From positions 88,713 through 152,712 of the forward strand of contig JANXYU010000003.1 of NCBI GenBank assembly GCA_025355855.1: a DNA stretch of 64,000 nt. Reading direction: 5' to 3'. How positions within the stretch are numbered: the stretch's first letter is position 1; every line of letters begins with the position of its first letter. The position numbers and the translations under genes are program-made. The notes beneath the pieces were generated by a model. The model was not told the origin of the DNA, ran no database searches, and worked only from the letters and a program-made list of their open reading frames with translations. Below are positions 292-10,642 of this stretch, piece by piece. Source of the stretch: Actinomycetota bacterium (lineage in GTDB: Bacteria > Actinomycetota > JAHEXW01).

Positions 292-579
292 TTAGTCCCG
301 GTCCCTACCCCTGCCTCGGTCCCGATCCCGATCCCGACCCTCGCGGGCTTTTTGGACAGTGTAGGGGATGAGGGCCATTTCTCGCGCCCGTTTAACGGCT
401 CCAGCCAGCATGTTTTGATGCTGCGTACAATTTCCCGAGGTGCGCCGGGGCTTGATTTTACCGCGTTCCGAGATATACCGCTGTAGAGTGCCGAGGTCTT
501 TATAGTCGATCGACTCGCACTTCCTGCGGCAAAACTGGCAATATTTTTTGTAGGTCCTTCTGGCGTACTGCTCTGCCAC
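292..579 (-). CDS. rpsR: 30S ribosomal protein S18 with unusual C-terminal Arg-Asp repeat tail
   Basis: Conserved S18 core [61 protein letters not shown]; canonical rpsF-ssb-rpsR gene order. Confidence 0.9.
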
Positions 580-596
580 TTAAATAAACTCCTTCT

Positions 597-1016
597 CTAG
601 AATGGAACGTCGCTCTCCGAGCCGGCGCCTCCGCCGATCTCGGTAAAGTCAGATTCTTGTTTTCTACTGCCGCCGCCGCCTTCTCCCCGGCCGCCCAGAA
701 ATTGGACGTTTTCGGCAACTACTTCCACGACGGAACGTTTTTGGCCGTCTTCGGTTTCCCAACTGCGGCTCTGAAGTCTGCCTTCAACGGCGACGGAGCT
801 CCCTTTGTGGATATATTCGGCGCAGCGCTCCGCCAGCGTGGCCCAGACGACCACGTTAAAGAAATTCGGTTCCTCGACCCATTCTCCAGCGTCGTTCTTG
901 CGGCGTCGGTTAACGGCGATGCCGAAACCGCCGACGGTCGTGCCGCTGGGTATGGAACGCAACTCCACGTCGCGCGTGAGGTTACCGATCAGTATGACCC
1001 GGTTCAAGCTGGCCAT
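597..1016 (-). CDS. ssb: single-stranded DNA-binding protein
   Basis: Internal start MASLNRVILIGNLTRDVELR (OB fold), Gly-rich linker, acidic C-terminal tip SESDVPF. The upstream 64 codons of the track ORF (to 1208) are Arg-rich and overlap rpsF, so the start at 1016 is preferred. Confidence 0.85.
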   Translation of the reverse strand: MASLNRVILIGNLTRDVELRSIPSGTTVGGFGIAVNRRRKNDAGEWVEEPNFFNVVVWATLAERCAEYIHKGSSVAVEGRLQSRSWETEDGQKRSVVEVVAENVQFLGGRGEGGGGSRKQESDFTEIGGGAGSESDVPF

Positions 1017-1020
1017 ATCT

Positions 1021-1305
1021 CTAGTCCTTTGCGACGAACATATGCCGCACGACTTCGTCTGAGATGCGCAAGACCCGGTCCATTTCCTTGATGTTCTCTT
1101 CCGGGCCTTCAAAGTGGAAGAGAGCGTAATAGCCCATTGTCTGTTTTTTAATGGGATAGGCGAGTTTCCTTTTGCCCCAGCGATCGGTCTTGGCGACCTT
1201 GCCGCCATTCTTGGCGATGATTCCCTCGATCTTGGTTACCGCGGCTTCAATCTTCTCGTCTTCCATATTAGCATCGAGAATGGCCATGGCCTCGTATTCC
1301 TTCAA
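1021..1305 (-). CDS. rpsF: 30S ribosomal protein S6
   Basis: MKEYEAMAILDANMEDEKIEAAVTKIEGIIAKNGGKV...LAYPIKKQTMGYYALFHFEG is the S6 family signature; position upstream of ssb. Confidence 0.9.
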   Translation of the reverse strand: MKEYEAMAILDANMEDEKIEAAVTKIEGIIAKNGGKVAKTDRWGKRKLAYPIKKQTMGYYALFHFEGPEENIKEMDRVLRISDEVVRHMFVAKD

Positions 1306-1429
1306 ACTTGTACCCTCCTTGATACGAAAAATAGCGCGTAGTTCACGCGCTGATAGAGTGTTAACCTACTAATTATAGCGACAGAACGTCAATGATACAA
1401 CAGGAAGCCAGGTAAGAGCAAGAGCGTCA

Positions 1430-2521
1430 CTAAACGTTGAATCTGAAAAAGACGACGTCGCCGTCTTGCATTACGTATTCTTTACCTTCCAGCCTTAGCA
1501 AGCCTTTCTCTTTGGCCGCGTTGAACGAGCCGTTGGCGACTAGGTCGTCAAAGCCGACGATTTCCGCCCGAATAAACCCGCGTTCCATGTCAGTGTGAAT
1601 TTTTCCGGCAGCCGCGGGCGCTTTTGTGCCGGCGGTGATTGTCCAGGCCCTCGCTTCGGTCGGGCCCCCAGTGAAATAGGTAATCAAATCCAGCAGCTTA
1701 TAGGAAGCCCGAATGAACGTCGCTAGCGGCAACTCTTCCAGACCGAGATCAGCCATAAACTCGGCTGCGTCCTCGTCAGATAGTTTGCCCATCTCTTCCT
1801 CGAGCTCAACCGGCATCACGACTACGGCCGCACCTTCGGCCGCCGCCTTGGCCTCGACCTCTTTTACGTACGCGTTCTCAGTGTTCCCGATATCGGCTTC
1901 CCCGATGTTGGCTACGTAGATGACGGGCTTAAGAGTTAATAGACTGAGTGTTTTTAGGTAGAGCGTTTCCGCTTCATCGAAGTCGTGTGACCTTAGGGTA
2001 AAACCCTTGTCCAGATGGTCCTTGGCTTTCGCCAATGCCGTTCGTTCCTTGGCGGCGGCGGCGTCGCCGGTCTTGGCTTTGCGCACGCAGGCATCTAGAC
2101 GTTTCTCGACAGTCGACAGATCGGCCATCATCAGCTCGATGTTAATTATCTCGATATCGTCGCCAGGCGCGACCCGGCCTTCGACATGGGCGACGTTCTG
2201 GTCATCAAAACACCGAACGACCTGAGCAAGGGCGTCGGTTTCGCGTATATTGGCCAGAAACTGGTTGCCTAGCCCCTCGCCGCGGCTGGCCCCGCGCACC
2301 AGCCCCGCAATGTCCAGAAATTTTACCGACGCCGGTGTAATCTTGGCTGATTTTTCCATATCAGCGATTGTATACAGCCGCGCGTCGGGTACATCCACCA
2401 TGCCGACGTTCGGTTCGATAGTGGTAAATGCGTATGCGGCGGCCGGCGCTCCAGCCTTGGTCAGCGCGTTGAAAAGAGTCGATTTTCCCGCATTCGGCAG
2501 TCCGACGATACCAACTTGCAC
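1430..2521 (-). CDS. ychF: ribosome-binding ATPase YchF (Obg-family)
   Basis: G1 motif GIVGLPNAGKSTLFNALT at the N-terminus, 363 aa, C-terminal TGS-like region (MQDGDVVFFRFNV). Confidence 0.9.
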   Translation of the reverse strand: MQVGIVGLPNAGKSTLFNALTKAGAPAAAYAFTTIEPNVGMVDVPDARLYTIADMEKSAKITPASVKFLDIAGLVRGASRGEGLGNQFLANIRETDALAQVVRCFDDQNVAHVEGRVAPGDDIEIINIELMMADLSTVEKRLDACVRKAKTGDAAAAKERTALAKAKDHLDKGFTLRSHDFDEAETLYLKTLSLLTLKPVIYVANIGEADIGNTENAYVKEVEAKAAAEGAAVVVMPVELEEEMGKLSDEDAAEFMADLGLEELPLATFIRASYKLLDLITYFTGGPTEARAWTITAGTKAPAAAGKIHTDMERGFIRAEIVGFDDLVANGSFNAAKEKGLLRLEGKEYVMQDGDVVFFRFNV

Positions 2522-2571
2522 GTGTTTACCTCCATTTGTTCCATATTAGCAGATAAAAAAGGTCGCGCATT

Positions 2572-2586
2572 TTGTAAATATTACAA
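2572..2586. promoter_or_regulatory. 15-bp perfect palindrome TTGTAA-ATA-TTACAA in the divergent ychF/regulator intergenic region; candidate operator
   Basis: Read directly. Lies ~35 nt upstream of the 2621 ATG in an AT-rich ~100-bp promoter region. Confidence 0.25.
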
Positions 2587-2620
2587 AGAAAGTTGCCGAT
2601 ACATATTATGAGGTGAATAT

Positions 2621-3307
2621 ATGACTCTGCAATGGCTGTTTCATAACTATCAACGAGGTCTTCTGACGGCTCTTTACGAACACCCGATGGAGGCCGTCTG
2701 CCTAAGTGAACTAGCCCGGCGGGCTGGCGTCGATCCCGGCAATACCAAACGCTATCTGGAGAAGTTTGCGGAATGCGGTATAGTATCTGCCGAAAAGCGA
2801 GGACGAAAGACGGCTTTTAGGCCTAACCTGGGAAACCCTGAAACCCGCAAGATTTTTGAGCTGTTCGAGTTAGACAGGACAAAAAAGTTCTTGGCCAAGA
2901 TTCATCCCCTGGCGGATATTCGTGTCGACGCCTTCCTGACGGAACTCGTTGAACAACTGCCCGATATCAGGTTAATCGTCATGTACGGGCTGGAAGACAA
3001 CGATATCGTGGTCAGAAAACCCCTTGGCCTAGCGATCGTTGTCGGTTCTTTGCATGATACGTCCTTAGTCCATCACAAGGTCCGCTCGCTGATTGACTCA
3101 GCCGGATTCAGGCATGAATTCGAGCTCTGCGTTTATACCACCGATAATCTGGCTGCCGCCTGGAATAAGAGCGATTGCGGTTGTGTCGGTTTCTGTAATG
3201 ACCGGGTCGTGCTATTCGGCGAGGGCTACTACTGGCGACTTGTTGACAACCAATTTCATCAAGACCAAACCACCCCCACTGACGAGGAGATGGTTCAAAA
3301 TGCATAA
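2621..3307 (+). CDS. putative winged-helix transcriptional regulator with degenerate nucleotidyltransferase-like C-terminal half; first gene of the exosortase-family operon
   Basis: ATG with GAGGTG RBS. The segment LSELARRAGVDPGNTKRYLEKFAECGIVSAEKRGRKTAF resembles MarR/ArsR-type wHTH. The stop overlaps the next gene's start by 8 nt. Confidence 0.4.
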   Translation: MTLQWLFHNYQRGLLTALYEHPMEAVCLSELARRAGVDPGNTKRYLEKFAECGIVSAEKRGRKTAFRPNLGNPETRKIFELFELDRTKKFLAKIHPLADIRVDAFLTELVEQLPDIRLIVMYGLEDNDIVVRKPLGLAIVVGSLHDTSLVHHKVRSLIDSAGFRHEFELCVYTTDNLAAAWNKSDCGCVGFCNDRVVLFGEGYYWRLVDNQFHQDQTTPTDEEMVQNA

Positions 3308-4037
3308 ACTGATCGCGTTGCGCCTTAAATTTAGGACTCTCGGGCTGATAATCGCTTTGTCTTGCGTCGGCGTCCTGCTATTCGGCGCCACGGCGCTGGC
3401 AGACACCGCCTATTTTGTAAAGAACAGCTCGGAATCCGGTTTGTTCGTAAACGCGCTCAGTGACACCGTTTCGGGGTCGACTTTGGAGTATTCGATATTA
3501 AACATGACGCCGGGCCAAATTTCTTATTTCGGCTCACCGAACGCGACCTCGTATTCCAAGGTCTATCCGGGCGGCAACGGTGTCGCGGCCGGGAATTGGA
3601 CGCTTAGTGCCTGGGGTCGGTCCCTGAACGCCTCTAAAGTAGTATTCTCCGCCGAGATCGGGGAATACACCAGCGCCGGAACCTATACCGTCAAGATACC
3701 GTACGGCGACACGCCGGCCGGTTTTGGCTGGACACCCGATTTTAAGGGGGCTAACGCGACCATGAAGAGTGTCACCAAAGTCGGGGCGCCCGCCTTTACG
3801 ATTGCGGCCGGGAGCCGGATTTATGTGAGGATATACGCCAAAAATACACACTCAACACAGAATCGGGATGCCTTCCTGGCATATAACTCGACCGCAACCA
3901 ATTCAAATCTGTCGACCCCTCCGTTCGCTCAGCCTATACCCGCTCTGGGTTGGTATCTGGTTTTGGCCGGCATCGTGGTGTTCGCGTTCTTCGCCGTCGG
4001 GCAGGGTGTCTTGAAGGTGAGAAGGGATGAAGCTTGA
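3300..4037 (+). CDS. secreted Ser/Thr/Asn-rich protein with signal peptide, nine N-x-S/T sequons and a C-terminal motif+TM helix+basic tail; candidate exosortase-type sorting substrate
   Basis: ATG 3300 opens MHKLIALRLKFRTLGLIIALSCVGVLLFGATALA|DT (AxA cleavage site). The C-terminus is ...PPFAQPIPALGWYLVLAGIVVFAFFAVGQGVLKVRRDEA. The TGA stop overlaps the TTG start of the next gene. Confidence 0.5.
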   Translation: MHKLIALRLKFRTLGLIIALSCVGVLLFGATALADTAYFVKNSSESGLFVNALSDTVSGSTLEYSILNMTPGQISYFGSPNATSYSKVYPGGNGVAAGNWTLSAWGRSLNASKVVFSAEIGEYTSAGTYTVKIPYGDTPAGFGWTPDFKGANATMKSVTKVGAPAFTIAAGSRIYVRIYAKNTHSTQNRDAFLAYNSTATNSNLSTPPFAQPIPALGWYLVLAGIVVFAFFAVGQGVLKVRRDEA

Positions 4038-4633
4038 CTCAGGTCGGCACCGTATTGCTGAGCATTGCTGCGATAACCGCCTACTTGATCGGCGTGATCT
4101 ATTTTCGACGGCGCCGGGCCTGGTTGGGATATTACCTGTTCGCGACTGTCGGGCTAACGCTTATCTTGGTTTTCGGCGCGCAATTGACCGGCTTATCCGA
4201 CAGGATCGAGTATCTAGTCACTTGGCTGACCGCCCGCGCCTCACTGTTGTTAGGCATCCAGGCACAATTCCTGGGCCAAAACGAATTGATGGTCTCAGAC
4301 AAAGCGGGCTGGGTCATTTTGCGAACAACGATCGAGTGCTCGGCCTTGATCGAAACCAGCGTACTGATCGCTTTGGTTGCGTTCTATCCGGCCTTCAGGT
4401 GGACCAAGAAAGCGGCAATTTTGTCTTTCGGCCTGCCGATTACCTGGCTGTCCAACATCGTTCGGTTGCTGATCATCACGGCAGTGACGGCATTCTTTGG
4501 CCGACAAGCAGTGTTTTTCGGACACGCCGTCGTGGGCCGGTTCTTTTTTTTGGTGGTAACAATTGCCCTGTACTGGTACATCCTGACGATGCCGACAGTA
4601 AAACACATCGGGAAGTCTCTAGAACAAGGATAG
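4034..4633 (+). CDS. exosortase/archaeosortase-family protein, minimal ~199-aa form (XrtG-like)
   Basis: Polytopic membrane protein carrying family signature residues in context: TTIECSALIETSVL (Cys), NIVRLLIITAV (Arg), FGHAVVGRFFF (His/Arg). TTG start is coupled to the upstream stop. A family-2 glycosyltransferase follows immediately, as in the Gram-positive XrtG subfamily. Confidence 0.55.
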   Translation: MTQVGTVLLSIAAITAYLIGVIYFRRRRAWLGYYLFATVGLTLILVFGAQLTGLSDRIEYLVTWLTARASLLLGIQAQFLGQNELMVSDKAGWVILRTTIECSALIETSVLIALVAFYPAFRWTKKAAILSFGLPITWLSNIVRLLIITAVTAFFGRQAVFFGHAVVGRFFFLVVTIALYWYILTMPTVKHIGKSLEQG

Positions 4634-4647
4634 AGGCGAGATTCTAA

Positions 4648-6291
4648 ATGGACGGTTTGTGGACGTTTATGCTGATCTGGGGTGTTTGGATCCTGCTGCC
4701 GATTCTGGTGGACGGGTCAGACACACTTCTCAGGCTATTCGTTGTGCTGCTTTGGGGACGCAAGAAAATCCGGCCGACTGTCGCCGACGCCGACTTGCCG
4801 TTCGTCTCCATCCTTGTGCCCGCGTATAACGAAGACCAAGTCATCGACCGCTGTTTGAACTCGATCAAACTGCAGGACTATCCGCACGACAAGATGGAGG
4901 TCATTGTAATTAATGACGGTTCGAGCGACCTTACCGCGGATAAGGTTCTAAGCCATATCGACGGCCGCGAAGTCGGCATGCGCGATCTTAACCAGCGCGA
5001 TCCCAAGGGCGCCGTAAGCGATGCGGGCGAGGTTTTCAGGGTCGTACCGCCGGGCATCTATCGCAGTAAAGACATCGTCGTTGACGAAGAATCCCGCCGC
5101 CCGAAGCACGACGAAGCCCTCTTGGAAGGCAAGTATGTCGACGTCCCCGAATTCAGCGGCGAGATGACGCTCATTAATAACCACCACTTTGGCAAACCGA
5201 CCGCGTTAAACTCGGGCATCTCACAGATGAACGGGAGTCAGATAATCTTTACGGTCGACTCCGACGTCGTTCTTGATGGCGGCGCGGTACGCAATATGGT
5301 CTACGCGTTTCTGGATGATCCCAAATTGGGCGCAGCGACCGGACACATCGAGATATCCGAGGATATCGTGGAGGAACGCGACGAACTTGGTAACCTTGTC
5401 TTAGATGAGAAGGGCCACCTGATTCGCAAGAAGATGAACTTTATGCAAACCGCTTTGACGCGTCTCCAATTCCTGGAGTATTTGGACGCGTTCCGGCTCG
5501 GGCGGCAGTTCCAGGCGACGATCGGTTCCGCATACATCTTGGCGGGCGCCTTCTCCGCATTCAGGCGCAGCACCCTTATGAAGACCGAACTCTATAAACC
5601 GCGCACGGTCAGCGAGGATTTTGACTTGACCGTCGATATCCATGAAACCGGCGAGAAAGTCGGTTATGTCGCTGAATCTAAGGCCTTGCTGGCGCCTGTC
5701 ATTAACGTCAATGCTCTGTATTCCCAGCGTGTGCGCTGGTGCAGAGGACAGCTGGAAGTAGCCGGGGCGCACCAGAAAGTAATCGGCAACCGGCGTTATG
5801 GCATGGTTGGCTGGTTCGGTTTTCCGCAGATGCTGATTACCGATCACACCTTAAGTTTTCCCAGATTGATCTGGACGATTCTGATCATCATGTTTCCGCT
5901 CTTCGGTTATCCTGTTAGCACAGTCACACTGGCCCTATTGTTTACCTATGCGTTTTATGTTGTGCTTAGTTTCATGCAAACCTTCGCCGCCTACGTGATA
6001 GTAGATGGGGAAACAAAACGCAAGACGGAACGGGCCTTGGGTTGGTGTTTCGCCTTACCGTTCTACCGCTTGGTCGTATTCTACTTCCGGATGTCCGGCT
6101 ACTTGCGAACCCTTACTGAGCCAGCCGGTTGGGACATCACGTCTAAGACTTTGGTTAACGCGAACGCGAATATCGACAGACTGAAGGACGGGGCCGCCGG
6201 GATGCTCCGTACCTACAAAAGAACCGCCCATGGCGTCGCCGCCATCGTACGCTCCGTCATGATGCTCGTCCTCTTGTTCGTGCGGGACTAG
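4648..6291 (+). CDS. processive family-2 glycosyltransferase (membrane-embedded polysaccharide-synthase type)
   Basis: Motifs VPAYNED, DGSSD, GKPTALNSG, TVDSDVV (DxD), SEDFDLT, QRVRWCRGQ (QxxRW). N- and C-terminal TM helices. An ~90-aa insertion sits between DGSSD and GKPTALN. Confidence 0.75.
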   Translation: MDGLWTFMLIWGVWILLPILVDGSDTLLRLFVVLLWGRKKIRPTVADADLPFVSILVPAYNEDQVIDRCLNSIKLQDYPHDKMEVIVINDGSSDLTADKVLSHIDGREVGMRDLNQRDPKGAVSDAGEVFRVVPPGIYRSKDIVVDEESRRPKHDEALLEGKYVDVPEFSGEMTLINNHHFGKPTALNSGISQMNGSQIIFTVDSDVVLDGGAVRNMVYAFLDDPKLGAATGHIEISEDIVEERDELGNLVLDEKGHLIRKKMNFMQTALTRLQFLEYLDAFRLGRQFQATIGSAYILAGAFSAFRRSTLMKTELYKPRTVSEDFDLTVDIHETGEKVGYVAESKALLAPVINVNALYSQRVRWCRGQLEVAGAHQKVIGNRRYGMVGWFGFPQMLITDHTLSFPRLIWTILIIMFPLFGYPVSTVTLALLFTYAFYVVLSFMQTFAAYVIVDGETKRKTERALGWCFALPFYRLVVFYFRMSGYLRTLTEPAGWDITSKTLVNANANIDRLKDGAAGMLRTYKRTAHGVAAIVRSVMMLVLLFVRD

Positions 6292-6295
6292 CGCG

Positions 6296-8839
6296 TTGGC
6301 ACAGGCGATTCCCGAACCCCTGCAACCGGCCAAGCCCGACGTGCGCAAAGGTTGGACTCTGTCTCGGTTTATGCTGGGCTTGGCTTTCATTTGGCTGGTA
6401 GTGTTCGTCGTCTTCCGCCACATCGCCGAGCCGGGTGTTCCCGCTGGTAATGATGCGATGGCCCACCTGTTTAAGATCTGGTATATCGGTCAACACCTGG
6501 CCCAGACGCATACATTTCCCGTGTGGCTGCCATACTGGTACGAGGGTACTGACCTCATCAAGTATTATCAACCTCTATTCTACGTAGTCGCGACGCCCTT
6601 CTACCTGATCACGAAGGATGTGTTCACCACTTACCGGATCGTCACGTTCGTTTGGATCGGGCTAGTGAGCCTGTCCATGTACGGAGTAGTCTACCGCCGT
6701 CTCGGCCTATTCCCAGCAATCGTCGCCGCCATCCTCTACGCATTGTCCCCGCCCGTGATAAGGGCCTATTTTTATGTCGGTCTGCTGCCGCAGGCGTTCT
6801 CGTACATATTTCTGCCGCTGGCTTTTCATTTCACCCTGCGCCTGGCCGATGAAGGCGCCAAGAGGGCCAAGACGGTCGCGCTACTGGCCGTCTGTTGGGG
6901 TCTATTTATTCTGGCCCATCCGATGAGCGCGGCTTTCTCGATGATGGCCACGTTCGTCTTTATTGCTGTCTATCAGGCTACTAAACAGGAGGAACGGCAC
7001 CCCCTGGTGGTCACGCGCTACCTTTTGTCAGCGGCTTTGGGAATCGGCGTAGCCGCCCTCTGGTTCGTGCCGGCTTACTTCGGCAAGATAATGCCGCCAA
7101 CGTCAGGCGAAGCGGTTTTTACGACTTCGGTTCCCTTGAAGGAGTTGGCGGGGTTTGTCACTGGCGCCGCGACCGTAAACGCCCGCTATATTCCGATTGC
7201 TCTGTCTATCTTGGCGATAGCGGGAACATTCTGGCGTCGTACCGCGCTCGCGTGGGGCTTAGCCGCCATGGGAGCGTTTACGATGATCTTCGCGTTGGGC
7301 GTGCAAACGCCCCTCTATAGTTGGGTACCACTGTCGTCGGCCATTTTTCCTGAGTACGCTCTTTTCGGCGCCTGTTTCGCGTTTGCTTTTCTGGCCGGCC
7401 GCCTTTTCGAAAGAACTATCCGTAACCGGGCCAAAGACGCTGCGACTGTCGTTCTCATCGTGACGGTGGTATTTATCGCCTTGTTGGAAACACAACCTGT
7501 CTTTACGTCAGTCATCAACAAGCCCGCGCCGTCCGACATTATTCGCTTACTCGATAAAGCGAAAACCTTGCCCGCCGACGGCCGGGTATCGATGCTTGGC
7601 CATTCCTCGGCGGTCCTGTCCTATTATCCGACTGTCTTGACAGGCCGCCAGATCACCGAGGGTTTCTTCTACCAAGGAACGAACCACTACAAAGAAATCG
7701 CCAATATCAACGACGTGCAGATTCATGATTATTCGCCCGAATATGTCCACCGGAAGCTGGCGCAGTGGAACACGCGGTATATCATGGTTCACACCGCGAC
7801 GCTTACGCAGGACAAGGCGGTCATCCCGCCGGGCTATAAAAAGGTCGCTACGGCCCAATTGTGGAATCTTTTCTATCAGGATAAGGCCCGTTCAAGCTTC
7901 CAGCTAATGACTCACGACACTATTGCCATCGGCAAGAACCCGGCCATCGTCGCTCTGCGCTATCCCTGGGTCGTCGAGGGCGGCTTGTATGTCGACAACT
8001 ACGATTGGAAATATCTTTCGCAATTCAAACGGATCATCCTGACCGGCTTCGCTTTTCATGATCGCAAGACGACCGTCGATCTGATAACTCGACTGGCGGA
8101 GAGCGGACGCACGGTCGTTATCGATCTCCAAGACGTCGCGAGTGAGTTCGGCACTGAGAGCGTCTCGTTTATGAATGTGTTGCCGATTCCCGTGACGACC
8201 CGTCAGCAAATCAGCCTGACACCGTCCGAGCAATTAACCGGCCTGCCACGGCGAAAACTTAATCTGCGGAATCTTGCTTATAACGGGGAGGCCTGGAAGG
8301 CGGTAGTCTATACGGGCCTCGACTCAAGCGCGTACGATGTCACGATCGAGGGCAAAACCTACAGCGCGTTGGGCTATAAGCGCGCCGGAGCGGGCAAGAT
8401 ATATTTCGCGGGTTTGAATCTATTTTTCCACAATTTGCTGGCGGCCGAGAAAGATGGGACCGCGCTCACCGATTGGCTGGCCGGTCCGCGTGATCCCAGT
8501 CTGTATATGACCAATTTCCCTGTCACAGCCCAAACCTGGCGCGATGATTCGGTCGACTTCAGTTACACGTCAACGAAGACCGCTCCGGTTGTGGTTTCGA
8601 CAACTTGGACCGAAAACTGGCACGCGACAATCGACGGAAAGCCGCTCAAGGCCTACGCATATGAAAACATGCCGTTGTTCTTCCTGCCCGCCGGCGCTCA
8701 TACGATCGAGTTGAAATACGGCACAACGGGATTGGAGATTTTTGCTACGCTTATCACGGTAGCGTCAGTCGCAATCGTCCTCTTCATTTTAATAAGGAGC
8801 GTGCGCCGTAAAAACAGCGCTGATAATACCGGCCTTTAA
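6296..8839 (+). CDS. large polytopic membrane protein (~13 N-terminal TM helices, ~430-aa extracytoplasmic domain, terminal TM anchor); candidate GT-C-fold/YfhO-like glycosyltransferase, XrtG-associated
   Basis: Hydropathy pattern read from the translation. Acidic first loop (GNDAMAHLF...WYEGTD). Synteny between a processive GT2 and a polyprenol-phosphate-sugar-synthase-like GT2. Confidence 0.45.
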   Translation: MAQAIPEPLQPAKPDVRKGWTLSRFMLGLAFIWLVVFVVFRHIAEPGVPAGNDAMAHLFKIWYIGQHLAQTHTFPVWLPYWYEGTDLIKYYQPLFYVVATPFYLITKDVFTTYRIVTFVWIGLVSLSMYGVVYRRLGLFPAIVAAILYALSPPVIRAYFYVGLLPQAFSYIFLPLAFHFTLRLADEGAKRAKTVALLAVCWGLFILAHPMSAAFSMMATFVFIAVYQATKQEERHPLVVTRYLLSAALGIGVAALWFVPAYFGKIMPPTSGEAVFTTSVPLKELAGFVTGAATVNARYIPIALSILAIAGTFWRRTALAWGLAAMGAFTMIFALGVQTPLYSWVPLSSAIFPEYALFGACFAFAFLAGRLFERTIRNRAKDAATVVLIVTVVFIALLETQPVFTSVINKPAPSDIIRLLDKAKTLPADGRVSMLGHSSAVLSYYPTVLTGRQITEGFFYQGTNHYKEIANINDVQIHDYSPEYVHRKLAQWNTRYIMVHTATLTQDKAVIPPGYKKVATAQLWNLFYQDKARSSFQLMTHDTIAIGKNPAIVALRYPWVVEGGLYVDNYDWKYLSQFKRIILTGFAFHDRKTTVDLITRLAESGRTVVIDLQDVASEFGTESVSFMNVLPIPVTTRQQISLTPSEQLTGLPRRKLNLRNLAYNGEAWKAVVYTGLDSSAYDVTIEGKTYSALGYKRAGAGKIYFAGLNLFFHNLLAAEKDGTALTDWLAGPRDPSLYMTNFPVTAQTWRDDSVDFSYTSTKTAPVVVSTTWTENWHATIDGKPLKAYAYENMPLFFLPAGAHTIELKYGTTGLEIFATLITVASVAIVLFILIRSVRRKNSADNTGL

Positions 8840-9518
8840 CGAGAAAGAAAATATCGGACCGCTGCTTGATCGCGTCGAGACAGTCATCGCGGACTCGGCT
8901 CTGACTTTAGATGTCGTTGTCGTCGATGATGGCTCCTTCGACACCACCGGATCGATCGCGGCGGACAAGGCGGCAAAATACGGTAACGTCAATGTGGTCA
9001 CCCACGAGGTAAATAAGGGCTTTGCCGCTGCGCTCAAGACCGGTATCGCCGCCGCACTGGCAGGCGGATACGACGCCGCTGTCTTTATGGACTGTGACCA
9101 GACACACGATCCCGCCGATTTGCCGGCCTTTCTTACGCAATTGGAACGCGGTACTGACCTGGTTATCGGCTCTCGTTATGTGGGAACCGGCGGGATGGTC
9201 GATGTCCCGTGGCACCGCGTGGCGATCAGCGTGCTCGGCAACGGTTTCGGCAAGCTTGTCTTTCGGCTCCCGGTCCGCGACGCTTCCAGCGGATATCGCG
9301 CTCTGAGCCGCAAGGCTATGGCATCGCTCCGCATCGCCTCCAATGATTTCAGCATCCAGGTCGAAGAGGTCCTGCGCGCCCGGCGGCTGGGTCTGACTTT
9401 CTCGGAGATACCCATAACTCTGGTGAATCGCAAACTAGGTTCGTCAAAATTCAATCTGAATATCTCGGCGCTGTGGCGCTATTTCTTATTAATGTTTAGG
9501 AGCCTGACATGGCGCTAA
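8820..9518 (+). CDS. family-2 glycosyltransferase of the polyprenol-phosphate sugar synthase type (DPM1/GtrB/ArnC-like), soluble form; start codon unresolved
   Basis: ...ALIIPAFNEKENIGPLLDRV...VVVVDDGSFDTT...FMDCDQTHDP...GSRYVG. The frame is open only from 8796 and has no ATG/GTG/TTG before 8994. The start is either CTG 8820 or a frameshift near the A5 run at 8810-8814. Confidence 0.65.
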   Translation: MIIPAFNEKENIGPLLDRVETVIADSALTLDVVVVDDGSFDTTGSIAADKAAKYGNVNVVTHEVNKGFAAALKTGIAAALAGGYDAAVFMDCDQTHDPADLPAFLTQLERGTDLVIGSRYVGTGGMVDVPWHRVAISVLGNGFGKLVFRLPVRDASSGYRALSRKAMASLRIASNDFSIQVEEVLRARRLGLTFSEIPITLVNRKLGSSKFNLNISALWRYFLLMFRSLTWR

Positions 9519-10642
9519 AGGTGATGGCCGTTTTTGGCACTCGGCCGGAAGCAATCAAGCTGGCGCCGGTTATCGACGAGTTACGGCAACGGGACGGGGT
9601 CGAATGTCGCGTCGTAGTCACGGCGCAGCATCGGGAGATGATCGACCAGGCTTTGAATATTTTCGAAATCCGGCCGGACGCGGACCTGAATATTATGCGC
9701 CCCGACCAGACGCTGGACGATGTCGTCTGCCGGGCGCTGGCCGGGATTGCGCCTGTCTTTGAAACCATGGAGCCGGATGTCGTTTTGGTCCAAGGAGACA
9801 CGACGAGCGCGCTGGCGATGGCTTTGGCCGCCAGTCACCGCGGCATCACCGTCGGCCACGTGGAAGCCGGCCTGCGCACCCACGACAAGGCGCACCCGTT
9901 TCCGGAAGAACTGAATCGTCAAATGATCGGCCGCCTGGCCGACCTCCATTTCGCCCCGACCGAGATCGCCCGCGATAATCTGCTGGCAGAAGGCATAGCG
10001 TCAGATCGCGTCTTCCTGACAGGCAACACAGTCGTTGACACGCTGCTCCGGCTATCAACCGAGATTAGAGAACCGGTGGACGATACGCTACGGCGAATTG
10101 ATTTCGATAAACAAAGGGTCATTCTCGTAACCGCGCACCGGCGCGAGAATTTCGGGGCGCCTCTCGAGCATATTGCGACCGCCGTTAGGCAAATCGCGGA
10201 GGAACATGCGGACGTCGAGATTGTCCTACCGGTACATCCGAACCCACGCGTTAGCGCGGTAATGCGCGCGGCGCTCGCTAACGTCGAACGCGTCCATTTG
10301 GTTAAACCACTAAACTACTCCGATCTAATCTGGGTCTTAGCGCGTTGCTATTTCGCCATGACGGATTCCGGCGGCATTCAGGAGGAAGCTCCGACTTTTA
10401 AGAAGCCCGTACTGGTTATGCGGGAGAAGACGGAGCGGCCTGAAGGTATTGAGGCCGGCGTTGCTAAAATCGTTGGGACGACCGTTTACCGCCTGGTCGG
10501 CGCGGCATCCGATTTGCTTAATAACGAAGGGGTCTACGCCAGCATGCGGGCCCGGAAGAACCCCTACGGCGACGGCCATGCCGCCGCCCGGATCGCCGAC
10601 ATTCTGCTCGAAACCCTATCAGATACTGCGAGAAAACTCTAA
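9509..10642 (+). CDS. wecB: UDP-N-acetylglucosamine 2-epimerase (non-hydrolysing)
   Basis: MALKVMAVFGTRPEAIKLAPV...HVEAGLRT...RENFG...TDSGGIQEEAP are typical WecB/MnaA family segments; 377 aa. Confidence 0.9.
   Translation: MALKVMAVFGTRPEAIKLAPVIDELRQRDGVECRVVVTAQHREMIDQALNIFEIRPDADLNIMRPDQTLDDVVCRALAGIAPVFETMEPDVVLVQGDTTSALAMALAASHRGITVGHVEAGLRTHDKAHPFPEELNRQMIGRLADLHFAPTEIARDNLLAEGIASDRVFLTGNTVVDTLLRLSTEIREPVDDTLRRIDFDKQRVILVTAHRRENFGAPLEHIATAVRQIAEEHADVEIVLPVHPNPRVSAVMRAALANVERVHLVKPLNYSDLIWVLARCYFAMTDSGGIQEEAPTFKKPVLVMREKTERPEGIEAGVAKIVGTTVYRLVGAASDLLNNEGVYASMRARKNPYGDGHAAARIADILLETLSDTARKL

Follow-up and report, generated by a model that had tools for sequence, protein, structure and literature searches.

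We found that a 245–amino acid protein encoded in the window, the 64-kb stretch of DNA analyzed here, is probably the single, dedicated target of an XrtG-like exosortase, the product of the next gene downstream, which overlaps its own. The earlier note had proposed this protein as an exosortase substrate, and the comparison with related loci strongly supports the proposal: the same C-terminal tag terminates otherwise unrelated protein bodies and adjoins an XrtG-like gene in every locus where this could be checked. Judged from these comparisons, the pair belongs to a locus that parallels, in Actinomycetota, the XrtG/Firmicu-CTERM surface-protein/exopolysaccharide locus of Firmicutes but uses a different tag, one that lies outside current models.

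The proposed substrate protein

The open reading frame of the substrate proved to be real. We accepted the starts at 3300 for the substrate and at 4034 for the XrtG-like protein because both agree with the N termini of the homologues; on the same grounds, a longer TTG-initiated form of the substrate frame (3093 to 4037) and a shadow frame overlapping the enzyme gene (4027 to 4647, in an alternative frame) were rejected. As had been noted before, the protein begins with what reads as a Sec-type signal peptide with a putative cleavage site between ALA and DT. It combines N-terminal lysine/arginine residues, a hydrophobic core of 18 to 20 residues (Kyte-Doolittle 19-mer maximum of 2.45 at residues 16 to 34), and an AxA site, and the residues A32, A34, and D35 at the predicted site are invariant among the homologues.

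The mature body had been described as a low-complexity stretch rich in serine, threonine, asparagine, and glycine. It is indeed rich in serine, alanine, threonine, glycine, and asparagine; however, it is not low-complexity filler, as AlphaFold2 predicts a β-sandwich with a pLDDT of about 80 over residues 61 to 196, in a model of moderate confidence overall (mean pLDDT of 67.6). The predicted fold is CBM-like, and the body may bind carbohydrate. In the same model, a flexible linker of low pLDDT directly precedes the IPALGW motif.

The C-terminal tag

The layout of motif, transmembrane helix, and charged tail ascribed to the C terminus was confirmed. It consists of PPFAQP-IPALGW (the motif at residues 213 to 218, starting 33 residues from the C terminus), a 20-residue helix at positions 219 to 238, placed by AlphaFold2 at residues 217 to 234, and the tail KVRRDEA. 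The AGA AGG codons of the two arginines in the tail double as a GAGAAGGGA Shine-Dalgarno–like sequence for the XrtG-like gene.

Across the whole substrate family, conservation is highest in the tag, while the bodies are 17 to 26% identical or unalignable. In 13 to 14 diverse tag-bearing proteins, P214, L216, G217, and W218 vary little or not at all: in alignment A2, a 46-column profile of the tag, no sequence departs from P214 or G217, and conservation of L216 and W218 is at least 90%, whereas in alignment A4 each of the four reaches at least 90%. Within the helix, F228, A232, and G236 are unusually conserved. The basic cluster, K239-V-R-R in the window protein, reads KLRR, KLRK, WRRH, or IKKG in relatives. 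The tag as a whole can be written as [IV]P[AST][LM]G[WF] followed by a transmembrane segment and a basic cluster. The tag occupies the same terminal position as in the window in 13 of the 18 tag-bearing proteins; the remaining five, all remote (L015, P0034 to P0036, and P0043), have another 30 to 60 residues after the basic cluster, an arrangement unusual for a sorting tag.

Neither the C-terminal 50 residues nor the whole protein matched any family in Pfam (E ≤ 0.1) or in NCBIfam (E ≤ 10), whose models include PEP-CTERM, PGF-CTERM, IPTL-CTERM, and other cataloged sorting signals; the HMMER filters of these searches could have concealed very weak matches. The IPxLGW motif resembles IPTLxxWG. 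Searched with a strict DNA pattern, the window contains the tag once, as compared to no occurrence in 100 shuffles. Among 185,579 species genomes, this pattern matched once, in the orthologous locus; the whole nzgw113 genome gave a single hit. Loosening the pattern gave 19 matches in the JGI metagenome collection, all of them false, since they lay in noncoding frames or in helices inside EamA-type transporters, and true tag loci are apparently absent from that collection.

One tag on unrelated bodies

The same tag ends at least five mutually unalignable bodies, whose lengths are about 240, 260, 366, about 500/1121, and ≥789 amino acids. Among them are the 366-, 1121-, and ≥789–amino acid Ig/NEW3-repeat proteins; L012 encodes an Ig/NEW3-repeat body. 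A BLASTP comparison of the window body with the 507–amino acid type gave an E value of 0.24, and with the P0041 body an E value of 0.66, although the tails of the latter pair are nearly identical. By inspection and hydropathy, the signal peptide features (basic n-region, hydrophobic core, and AxA) are present in the window protein, the 507–amino acid protein of L002, the 500–amino acid protein of L008, and P0041. The exchange of bodies is sharply delimited in the comparison with the close relative L037, where DNA similarity breaks off at position 3309 and returns at 3936, precisely where the IPALGW codons begin. On this evidence, the tag appears to act as a portable cassette on unrelated bodies, as is typical of sorting signals.

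The earlier note had also considered that homologues might lack the C-terminal module. This was not the case: the clear homologues all keep it, the one exception being P0040, a weak match (E = 3e-5) that has no tag and a subthreshold Pfam WxL hit (18.7 bits, as compared to a gathering score of 25 bits). Another weak match, P0042 (E = 5e-4), ends in VPD[AP][ST]L followed by a transmembrane segment and RRS.

The tag gene is paired with an XrtG-like gene

An XrtG-like gene adjoins the tag gene in 18 of 18 checkable loci, four of which (P0003 to P0006) were assigned by an indirect same-contig match only; L038, which ends at a contig edge, was left out of the count. Many of these pairings are not independent, since the examples are all drawn from a few related uncultured lineages. 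The enzyme gene lies directly downstream in the window, in L017, L001, L005, L008, L012, L013, L015, L016, L037, and L041, and twice in L002, and the two genes are divergently adjacent in L039/L040. The overlap of the substrate stop with the exosortase-family start, pointed out previously for the window, is real (TGA at 4035 to 4037, TTG start at 4034, together TTGA), and a 4-nt NTGA overlap of this kind recurs in 11 of the 13 junctions between a tag gene and an XrtG-like gene. Whether the tag goes together with the enzyme had been suggested as a check, and among the checkable loci the tag was never found away from an exosortase homologue. There is one tag copy in the window; two copies were found on the L002 contig only, each with its own enzyme gene.

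The variants of the motif also track the divergence of the enzymes. The motif IPxLGW[YW]L goes with enzymes that are 60 to 100% identical, VPTLGF with one that is 56% identical, ISTLGW and IPTLDS with enzymes at 45 to 48%, and SIPA[LM]GWPL with enzymes at 38 to 39% identity.

The enzyme itself was recognized by the TIGR04178 exosortase/archaeosortase signature (50.2 bits, cutoff of 23) and by PF09721 (33.5 bits, cutoff of 25.7). Its best family by far is TIGR03110 XrtG (79.7 bits, which is below the cutoff of 102.75), followed by ArtC at 29.7 bits. It is colinear with annotated XrtG, at 23 to 24% identity in alignment A3 and 26.7% identity to Lactococcus lactis XrtG by BLASTP, and the residues E101-C102-S103, N141, R144, H164, G168, and R169 (an ECS...N..R...H..GR signature) are invariant with respect to three annotated XrtG proteins.

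Organization of the locus

The genes at the locus follow the order winged-helix protein, substrate, XrtG-like enzyme, PgaC/BcsA-like GT2, and PF10131 GT-C protein, and the locus resembles the known XrtG surface-protein/polysaccharide locus, of which it would be a rare actinobacterial form. Coordinates are listed in Table 1.

Table 1. Features of the substrate gene and its neighbors, in window coordinates.
Feature	Position	Strand	Basis
Winged-helix protein, putative locus regulator (228 aa)	2621..3307	+	Weak wHTH Pfam/NCBIfam matches only
Substrate gene (245 aa): signal peptide, β-sandwich body, IPxLGW-type C-terminal sorting module	3300..4037	+	
Sec-type signal peptide, residues 1-34, predicted cleavage between TALA and DT	3300..3401	+	Read from sequence
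Mature body, residues 35-212; predicted jelly-roll/CBM-like β-sandwich core, ~61-196, then disordered linker	3402..3935	+	
Signature motif I213-P-A-L-G-W218	3936..3953	+	
Transmembrane helix, residues 219-238 (YLVLAGIVVFAFFAVGQGVL)	3954..4013	+	Kyte-Doolittle 19-mer up to 2.42
Charged tail K239-VRRDEA and stop codon	4014..4037	+	
XrtG-like exosortase-family protein (199 aa), proposed sorting enzyme	4034..4633	+	TIGR04178, TIGR03110, PF09721 scores
Membrane-embedded family-2 glycosyltransferase, PgaC/BcsA/chitin-synthase type (547 aa)	4648..6291	+	TIGR03111, PgaC_IcaA, Pfam GT2 models
Polytopic GT-C-like membrane protein (847 aa), PF10131 'PTPS_related'	6296..8839	+	PF10131, 205 bits; DUF6541, 39 bits
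Dpm1/AglJ/PpgS-like GT2 (polyprenyl-phosphate sugar synthase type)	8796..9518	+	PF00535, 93 bits; NCBIfam AglJ, PpgS
UDP-N-acetylglucosamine 2-epimerase	9509..10642	+	PF02350, 400 bits

The stop of the winged-helix gene overlaps the substrate start by 8 nt. In L001, L002, L005, L008, L015, L016, and L037, a homologue of 212 to 230 amino acids is encoded just before the substrate gene; the L037 copy is 57% identical to the winged-helix protein of the window. Downstream of the enzyme, the PgaC/BcsA-type GT2 was best matched by TIGR03111, the XrtG-associated glycosyltransferase model (267.9 bits, below the cutoff of 363.95), with PgaC_IcaA at 119.5 bits and cellulose synthase BcsA as its PDB matches; its position is identical to that of the TIGR03111 gene in annotated XrtG loci. 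The PF10131 family of the GT-C–like protein is also annotated in the Eubacterium eligens XrtG locus and is present in related actinobacterial loci; a sequence search for solved structures found no relative of this protein. The Dpm1/AglJ/PpgS-like GT2, which probably belongs to the same glycan pathway, is spanned over its whole domain by PF00535 when read from 8796, and the GTG start of its L017 copy corresponds to GCG in the window. L005 and L008 likewise have the epimerase gene beside the locus. The assignment to a metagenome-assembled lineage of Actinomycetota rests on the closest species-representative genome, with 84% nucleotide identity over 8 kb, and on one relative labeled Coriobacteriia.

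Proposed mechanism and alternative explanations

Haft et al. (section 5; bioRxiv 10.1101/2023.06.07.544157) give criteria for tripartite C-terminal sorting signals and allow adjacency to replace multiple copies in dedicated systems. From their list, we found the C-terminal position, the conserved motif, the hydrophobic transmembrane segment, the basic cluster, the signal peptide, the dissimilar bodies, and the adjacent enzyme, but not multiple occurrences per genome.

In the mechanism that we propose, Sec would export the 245–amino acid protein and the signal peptide would be removed at its predicted site. The C-terminal helix would then anchor the protein so that IPALGW lies on the outer side of the membrane and the basic tail stays in the cytoplasm, as the layout of the tag suggests. 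Cleavage and transfer are established for ArtA/PGF-CTERM, which serves as the model for the following steps. By this analogy, we infer that the XrtG-like exosortase recognizes the IPxLGW-helix module, cleaves the tag at or near the motif, and hands the CBM-like β-sandwich domain to an acceptor, most plausibly a lipid or a glycan made by the coencoded GT2 synthase and GT-C protein. A more specific version of this scheme is possible but doubtful: the IPxLGW tag and the XrtG-like enzyme would form a distinct, unmodeled sorting system of uncultured Actinomycetota, in which the enzyme attaches a swappable, CBM-like surface domain to the GT2/GT-C glycan through a covalent bond. Strains would keep the tag and exchange the body in front of it as a cassette, thereby varying the displayed surface.

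The conserved helix residues would also suit a lasting helix-helix partner. The protein could be a permanent, uncleaved subunit of the polysaccharide synthase that is anchored by its C terminus, with the IPxLGW-helix docking to the XrtG-like protein or the GT2 and the XrtG-like protein acting as a scaffold rather than a transpeptidase. We consider this unlikely, as the enzyme retains the Cys/Arg/His signature residues invariant with annotated XrtG and passes the exosortase/archaeosortase signature model, the motif is preceded by a flexible, low-pLDDT linker as in cleaved sorting signals, and the tag behaves like a portable module on unrelated bodies. It is even harder to believe, and in our view highly improbable, that the protein is an ordinary member of the cataloged Firmicu-CTERM family (TIGR04145) with nothing new beyond its taxonomic spread. 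Its position and gene order are those of Firmicu-CTERM genes, and its size is similar to that of the L. lactis member (220 amino acids); however, TIGR04145 scored 154.5 and 94.4 bits on two annotated members while failing to match the window protein even at E ≤ 10; at E ≤ 1, it also missed the 507– and 1121–amino acid proteins of L002 and the L008 and L005 proteins. The motifs differ as well (...TGGSTGG or ...TAGASSGAW with a lysine-rich tail, as compared to IPxLGW with an arginine/lysine tail), and an hhalign comparison of A1 with the L. lactis Firmicu-CTERM protein, one protein without a profile, gave a probability of 1%.

The earlier note had further counted nine sequons and pointed to N-glycosylation, and one could view the protein as chiefly an N-glycosylated, S-layer–like surface glycoprotein whose sequons are modified by the glycosylation machinery of the locus. 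We counted eight N-X-S/T sites, as compared to 2.9 ± 1.4 in composition-matched shuffles (P of about 0.0003 to 0.0015), and found a similar excess in P0002 (10 versus 3.7) and P0003 (7 versus 2.3), with P ≤ 0.002; in addition, genes for a GT-C membrane protein, a polyprenyl-phosphate-sugar-synthase–like GT2, and a UDP-GlcNAc 2-epimerase are present at the locus. However, the three sequon-rich proteins (7 to 10 sites) are 67 to 87% identical, so that the enrichment amounts to one lineage event. The other four homologues and the other tag-bearing proteins have one to three sites, with no excess in P0004 to P0007, L005, L016, L001, or any other tag-bearing body, and no sequon column is conserved family-wide. 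The GT-C protein of the locus belongs to PF10131/DUF6541 and does not match STT3, nor did we find an oligosaccharyltransferase of the STT3/PglB/AglB type elsewhere in the locus, and the same GT-C family occurs in Firmicutes XrtG loci whose targets show no sequon excess. N-glycosylation was thus not supported, and we regard this explanation as quite unlikely.

Implications

To our knowledge, exosortase G systems have been cataloged by computer models only, and we know of no acceptor or cleavage site for them. The actinobacterial variant is compact, pairing one enzyme with one substrate, and its IPxLGW motif is both sharply defined and very well conserved; natural body swaps locate the boundary of its signal to the base. 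It is therefore a convenient test case for how small exosortases recognize their targets, for what these targets get attached to, and for whether surface-protein sorting is tied mechanistically to c-di-GMP–linked exopolysaccharide synthesis in monoderm bacteria. Current annotation names neither partner, the substrate being a "hypothetical protein" and the enzyme falling below the model cutoff, and a new sorting-domain model would better annotate these metagenome-assembled genomes.

Comparison with known systems

A motif-helix-tail protein next to XrtG is an already cataloged type of system, made up of a Firmicu-CTERM protein, XrtG, and a TIGR03111 glycosyltransferase. The XrtG/Firmicu-CTERM system of Firmicutes (TIGR03110, TIGR04145, TIGR03111, and TIGR03766, with a PF10131 partner) shares with the window locus the order of target, exosortase, GT2, and GT-C/PTPS-related protein, an order that also matches the published Lactiplantibacillus plantarum XrtG system. 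Both have one target per enzyme, with abutting or overlapping genes, and a colinear enzyme of about 190 to 200 amino acids with the same invariant residues; GGDEF/EAL genes are next door in the L. lactis XrtG locus and in most actinobacterial relatives, and the function of both systems is known from in silico work alone. In contrast to the Firmicutes system, the window belongs to Actinomycetota, its enzyme and GT2 score below the TIGR03110 and TIGR03111 cutoffs, its IPxLGW tag replaces the Gly/Ser-rich motif and is unmatched by TIGR04145, its locus has no gene for a QueD-like 6-carboxytetrahydropterin synthase, and bodies are swapped between its relatives.

Archaeosortase A/PGF-CTERM of Haloferax volcanii uses an enzyme of the same superfamily (TIGR04178) and, as in the window, a motif-helix-basic tail signal on a Sec-exported surface protein. 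It differs in being archaeal, in serving many targets with one enzyme, in its motif (PGF), in having no coupled GT2/GT-C operon, and in its product, a lipid-anchored S-layer glycoprotein. Exosortase A/PEP-CTERM of Gram-negative exopolysaccharide loci likewise ties an exosortase to exopolysaccharide genes and uses the same tripartite signal; however, it has many targets per genome, the motif PEP, a diderm envelope, and a larger enzyme, and the PEP-CTERM models did not match the window protein. Last, JDVT-CTERM with its adjacent intramembrane protease (10.1101/2023.06.07.544157) has an unrelated, Rce1/CPBP-type enzyme and a motif with an invariant cysteine, but resembles the window system in having one target per strain, adjacent co-operonic genes, and a sporadic, rare distribution.

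The probable substrate and its gene

The N terminus of the 245-aa putative substrate, MHKLIALRLKFRTLGLIIALSCVGVLLFGATALA|DTAYF, reads as a signal peptide: a basic n-region is followed by a hydrophobic core, whose Kyte-Doolittle 19-mer maximum is 2.45, and by an AxA site. A32, A34 and D35 do not vary among homologues, in agreement with the ALA|DT cleavage site proposed in the earlier note. The motif-TM-charged-tail layout proposed there was likewise present: the C terminus is PPFAQP-IPALGW-YLVLAGIVVFAFFAVGQGVL-KVRRDEA, in which the motif is followed by a helix of 20 residues, with Kyte-Doolittle values up to 2.42, and by a tail that is first basic and then acidic (hereafter, the tag). The body had been described as S/T/N/G-rich and of low complexity. 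The composition held, with S, A, T, G and N abundant, but AlphaFold2 with a 13-sequence alignment predicts a folded β-sandwich at residues 61-196 (pLDDT about 80), followed by a linker and motif (residues 197-216) with pLDDT <50.

As had been noticed, the substrate stop overlaps the start of the exosortase-family gene: TGA (4035-4037) shares TTGA with the TTG start at 4034, and the tail's Arg-Arg codons (AGA AGG) supply that gene with a Shine-Dalgarno-like GAGAAGGGA. Two other reading frames are probably artefacts: a mechanical ORF starting at TTG 3093 inside the wHTH gene, and a 206-aa ATG ORF in another frame (4027-4647) shadowing the XrtG-like gene. Homologue N termini support 3300 and 4034, respectively.

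Genes of the locus and their profile matches
Feature	Position	Matches	Remark
rpsF-ssb-rpsR cluster, ychF	292-2521 (minus)		
Winged-helix protein, 228 aa	2621-3307	weak wHTH matches only	8-nt overlap with substrate start
Substrate, 245 aa	3300-4037 (+)	no NCBIfam or Pfam model	
Exosortase-family (XrtG-like) protein, 199 aa	4034-4633	TIGR04178 50.2 bits (cutoff 23); PF09721 33.5 bits; TIGR03110 XrtG 79.7 bits (under cutoff 102.75)	next subfamily 29.7 bits
GT2	4648-6291	TIGR03111 "XrtG-associated glycosyltransferase" 267.9 bits (cutoff 363.95); PgaC/IcaA 119.5 bits	PDB matches: cellulose synthase BcsA
Polytopic (GT-C) protein, 847 aa	6296-8839	PF10131 "PTPS_related" 205 bits	no solved structural relative by sequence
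Dpm1/AglJ/PpgS-like GT2	8796-9518	PF00535 93 bits	
UDP-GlcNAc 2-epimerase	9509-10642	PF02350 400 bits	

The tag is a module carried by varied bodies

Enzyme homologues lie in a conserved order: rpsF-ssb-rpsR, ychF, EAL (often), wHTH, target, XrtG-like, GT2, GT-C. The targets differ between loci, and all end in [IV]P[AST][LM]G[WF], a TM helix and a basic cluster (tag alignment A2). The 245-aa body is not similar to the 507-aa one (E 0.24). A profile search added the members P0033, P0034, P0035, P0036, P0039, P0041 and P0043. P0033 fuses the small and large bodies in one tag-bearing protein and thus links functionally two otherwise unalignable body types. In this 678-aa protein, a small body of the window type, scoring 125 bits against the window-family profile, is joined to a large body of roughly 450 aa, and the C terminus is YRIPTLGF, a TM helix and KRVKS.

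Tag-bearing targets
Target	Size	Tag or C terminus
Window type	about 240 aa	…PIPALGW…
L002 and L008 loci	507 and 500 aa	…YRVPTLGWWL…AVRRGAVQLKK
L002, second pair	1121 aa, then second XrtG-like gene	as L002/L008
L015 locus	366 aa	…EVPTLGF…
L012 locus	at least 789 aa, Ig/NEW3/MG2 repeats	…YSIPALGWPL…WRRH
L013 locus	partial, at least 162 aa	…SIPAMGWPL…
P0039, P0035, P0036		VPTLGWPL
P0043		ISTLGW
P0034		IPTLDS

The tail of P0041, TIPALGWYLALAGILVFSFFAVSRGVLKVKRNEA, is nearly identical to the window tail, and its body is unalignable with the window body (E 0.66). Its locus is orthologous (ychF, wHTH, P0041, an XrtG-like gene sharing 82% identity with that of the window, GT2). By blastn, the two loci aligned over 1430-2894 and 3038-3309 and, after a gap over the body, over 3936-5031, a stretch that opens exactly with the first base of the IPALGW Ile codon. 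Over 13 diverse members, only W100, P214, L216, G217, W218, L220 and G236 are (nearly) invariant, and motif variants follow the divergence of their enzymes.

One L002 contig region (6481-14461) holds two target/XrtG-like pairs with a GT2 gene between them. Its enzymes, P0015 and P0020, are paralogues, and in its second target repeats of the unit "…DSSNNLHVVW…RYKKYTVGTGWG" occur together with a copy of the large body of about 450 aa. Remote tag bearers, namely the L015 target (2476-3576), P0034, P0035, P0036 and P0043, run 30-60 residues past the basic cluster, and some of these extensions include another hydrophobic stretch; C-terminal sorting signals do not typically continue in this way. P0042 (669 aa), a weak body homologue with LamG and DUF2341 domains, carries two copies of another tail (…NLSTPVVTVPD[AP][ST]L, TM, RRS), one of them internal and followed by the apparent signal peptide of a next protein, as if two tandem target genes had been fused or read through.

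The tag is paired with an XrtG-like enzyme

An XrtG-like gene adjoins every tag-bearing gene with available surroundings. It lies directly downstream in the window, L017, L001, L002 (twice), L005, L008, L012, L013, L015, L016, L037 and L041, with an NTGA overlap at 11 of 13 junctions. In L039/L040 the two genes are divergent, 450 bp apart, beside GT2, PRC and PF10131 genes, while for the homologues P0003-P0006 the enzyme is on the same contig, as judged solely from matching contig sizes. The tag was also sought as DNA, with a strict degenerate pattern of about 44 bits that recovered every known close member. This pattern was present once in the window (0 in 100 shuffles) and exactly once among 185,579 species genomes, at the orthologous locus of nzgw113, where the tag is single-copy by this pattern. 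Because pairing holds in all checkable loci and the sole genome match is orthologous, the tag is not a general exosortase-free membrane anchor; the counter-case named in the earlier note, an anchor in exosortase-less genomes, went unseen in this search.

Tripartite C-terminal sorting signals have eight attributes according to Haft and co-workers, who let regular enzyme-target adjacency stand in for attributes 2, 7 and 8 where a system is dedicated and one-to-one (10.1101/2023.06.07.544157). The tag family shows attributes 1 and 3-7 and lacks attribute 2 (many copies per genome). Attribute 8 may be represented by P0040 and P0042, both weak matches, and the tag/XrtG-like pairs show the adjacency alternative.

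The family is rare: 7 homologues of the window protein among 5.8 billion clustered proteins, and 13 matches at E<=1e-3 when 1.84 billion representatives were searched exhaustively with a profile. The enzyme has 25 close homologues, and one distant homologue is labelled Coriobacteriia. Among species-representative genomes, "MAG: Actinomycetes bacterium isolate nzgw113" comes closest, with 84% nt identity over 8 kb.

The window protein is quite probably a substrate of the XrtG-like enzyme. Sec would export it and the C-terminal helix would keep it in the membrane; the enzyme would then recognise and remove the IPxLGW-helix-basic module, and the CBM-like domain may be passed to a lipid or glycan acceptor linked with the GT2/GT-C products. 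The comparisons establish the pairing and the modular nature of the tag; cleavage and acceptor are inferred from the analogy to ArtA/PGF-CTERM. The main rival, an uncleaved helix docking the protein to a synthase complex, would suit the unusual conservation inside the helix and the extended C termini of remote members, but the conserved catalytic signature of the enzyme speaks against it, and we regard it as unlikely.

Sequons and neighbouring genes

The earlier note gave nine N-glycosylation-type sequons for the substrate; we counted eight N-X-S/T sequons. The excess is significant in the window protein (8 vs 2.9 ± 1.4) and its homologues P0002 (10 vs 3.7) and P0003 (7 vs 2.3), which are 67-87% identical, while P0004-P0007 have 1-3. 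None of the alignment columns holds a conserved sequon, and no excess was found in other tag-bearing bodies or Firmicutes targets. Because the excess is limited to three close proteins, no sequon is conserved and the GT-C protein has no STT3 match, N-glycosylation is a lineage-local possibility and no defining feature.

The rpsF-ssb-rpsR/ychF neighbourhood directly upstream is kept in all long related contigs. This conservation indicates that the locus is a stable chromosomal feature of the lineage and not a mobile island. In the Dpm1/AglJ-like GT2, the GTG start of the close relative L017 (6658-6720) is GCG in the window (~8799-8801). From 8796 on, the frame is open, and the next canonical start, at 8994, would cost the domain its N-terminal part, including the VVVDDGS stretch; the gene may use a non-canonical start, its start codon may have mutated recently, or the sequence may contain an error.

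An EAL or GGDEF-EAL gene lies between ychF and the wHTH gene, or adjoins the locus, in most related loci (surveyed: window 2522-2620; L001, L002, L005, L008, L015, L016, L038, L039; L009 4413-6098). No such gene occupies the ychF-wHTH interval in the window, L017 and L037. On the L. lactis plasmid, GGDEF and EAL genes directly precede the XrtG locus. Such neighbours suggest that XrtG-type systems are under c-di-GMP control in different phyla.

Comparison with the XrtG/Firmicu-CTERM system

The "Exosortase G (XrtG) system" of L. plantarum, described in 2026, consists in order of a Firmicu-CTERM sorting-domain protein, XrtG and two XrtG-associated glycosyltransferases (PMC12854382). That system belongs to Firmicutes, whereas the window locus is from Actinomycetota. 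By tblastn, the window enzyme matched four annotated xrtG genes on Firmicutes plasmids. The three neighbourhoods inspected share the gene order of the window: L. lactis (GGDEF, EAL, Firmicu-CTERM protein, xrtG, TIGR03111 GT, QueD-like gene, TIGR03766 GT), E. eligens (Firmicu-CTERM protein, xrtG, TIGR03111 GT … 6-pyruvoyl-tetrahydropterin-synthase-related protein) and Aneurinibacillus (hypothetical protein, xrtG, TIGR03111 GT). The window enzyme is colinear with the XrtG proteins of these loci at 23-24% identity, with E101-C102-S103, N141, R144, H164, G168 and R169 invariant.

The targets differ. Those of Firmicutes end in …TGGSTGG, TM and KSKKNK or …TAGASSGAW, TM and KKKKG, in contrast to IPALGW. 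TIGR04145 scored 154.5 and 94.4 bits on annotated Firmicutes targets, with no match to the window protein even at E<=10 or to four other actinobacterial tag-bearing proteins at E<=1; hhalign of the window family with the L. lactis target gave a probability of 1%. On the Aneurinibacillus plasmid (NZ_CP116888.1; L010 6133-6783), the "hypothetical protein" encoded directly upstream of xrtG misses the Firmicu-CTERM model, yet has a motif-TM-basic layout at its end (…TANTVPSFTVYGIGVATIGAGFILAKRRKKGGVC). Even in Firmicutes, TIGR04145 thus seems not to cover the full diversity of XrtG targets. We conclude that the window system is an actinobacterial XrtG-type system, below model cutoffs and with a sorting signal covered by no model. 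The system type was already known; new are this signal and the cassette-like exchange of the displayed domain.
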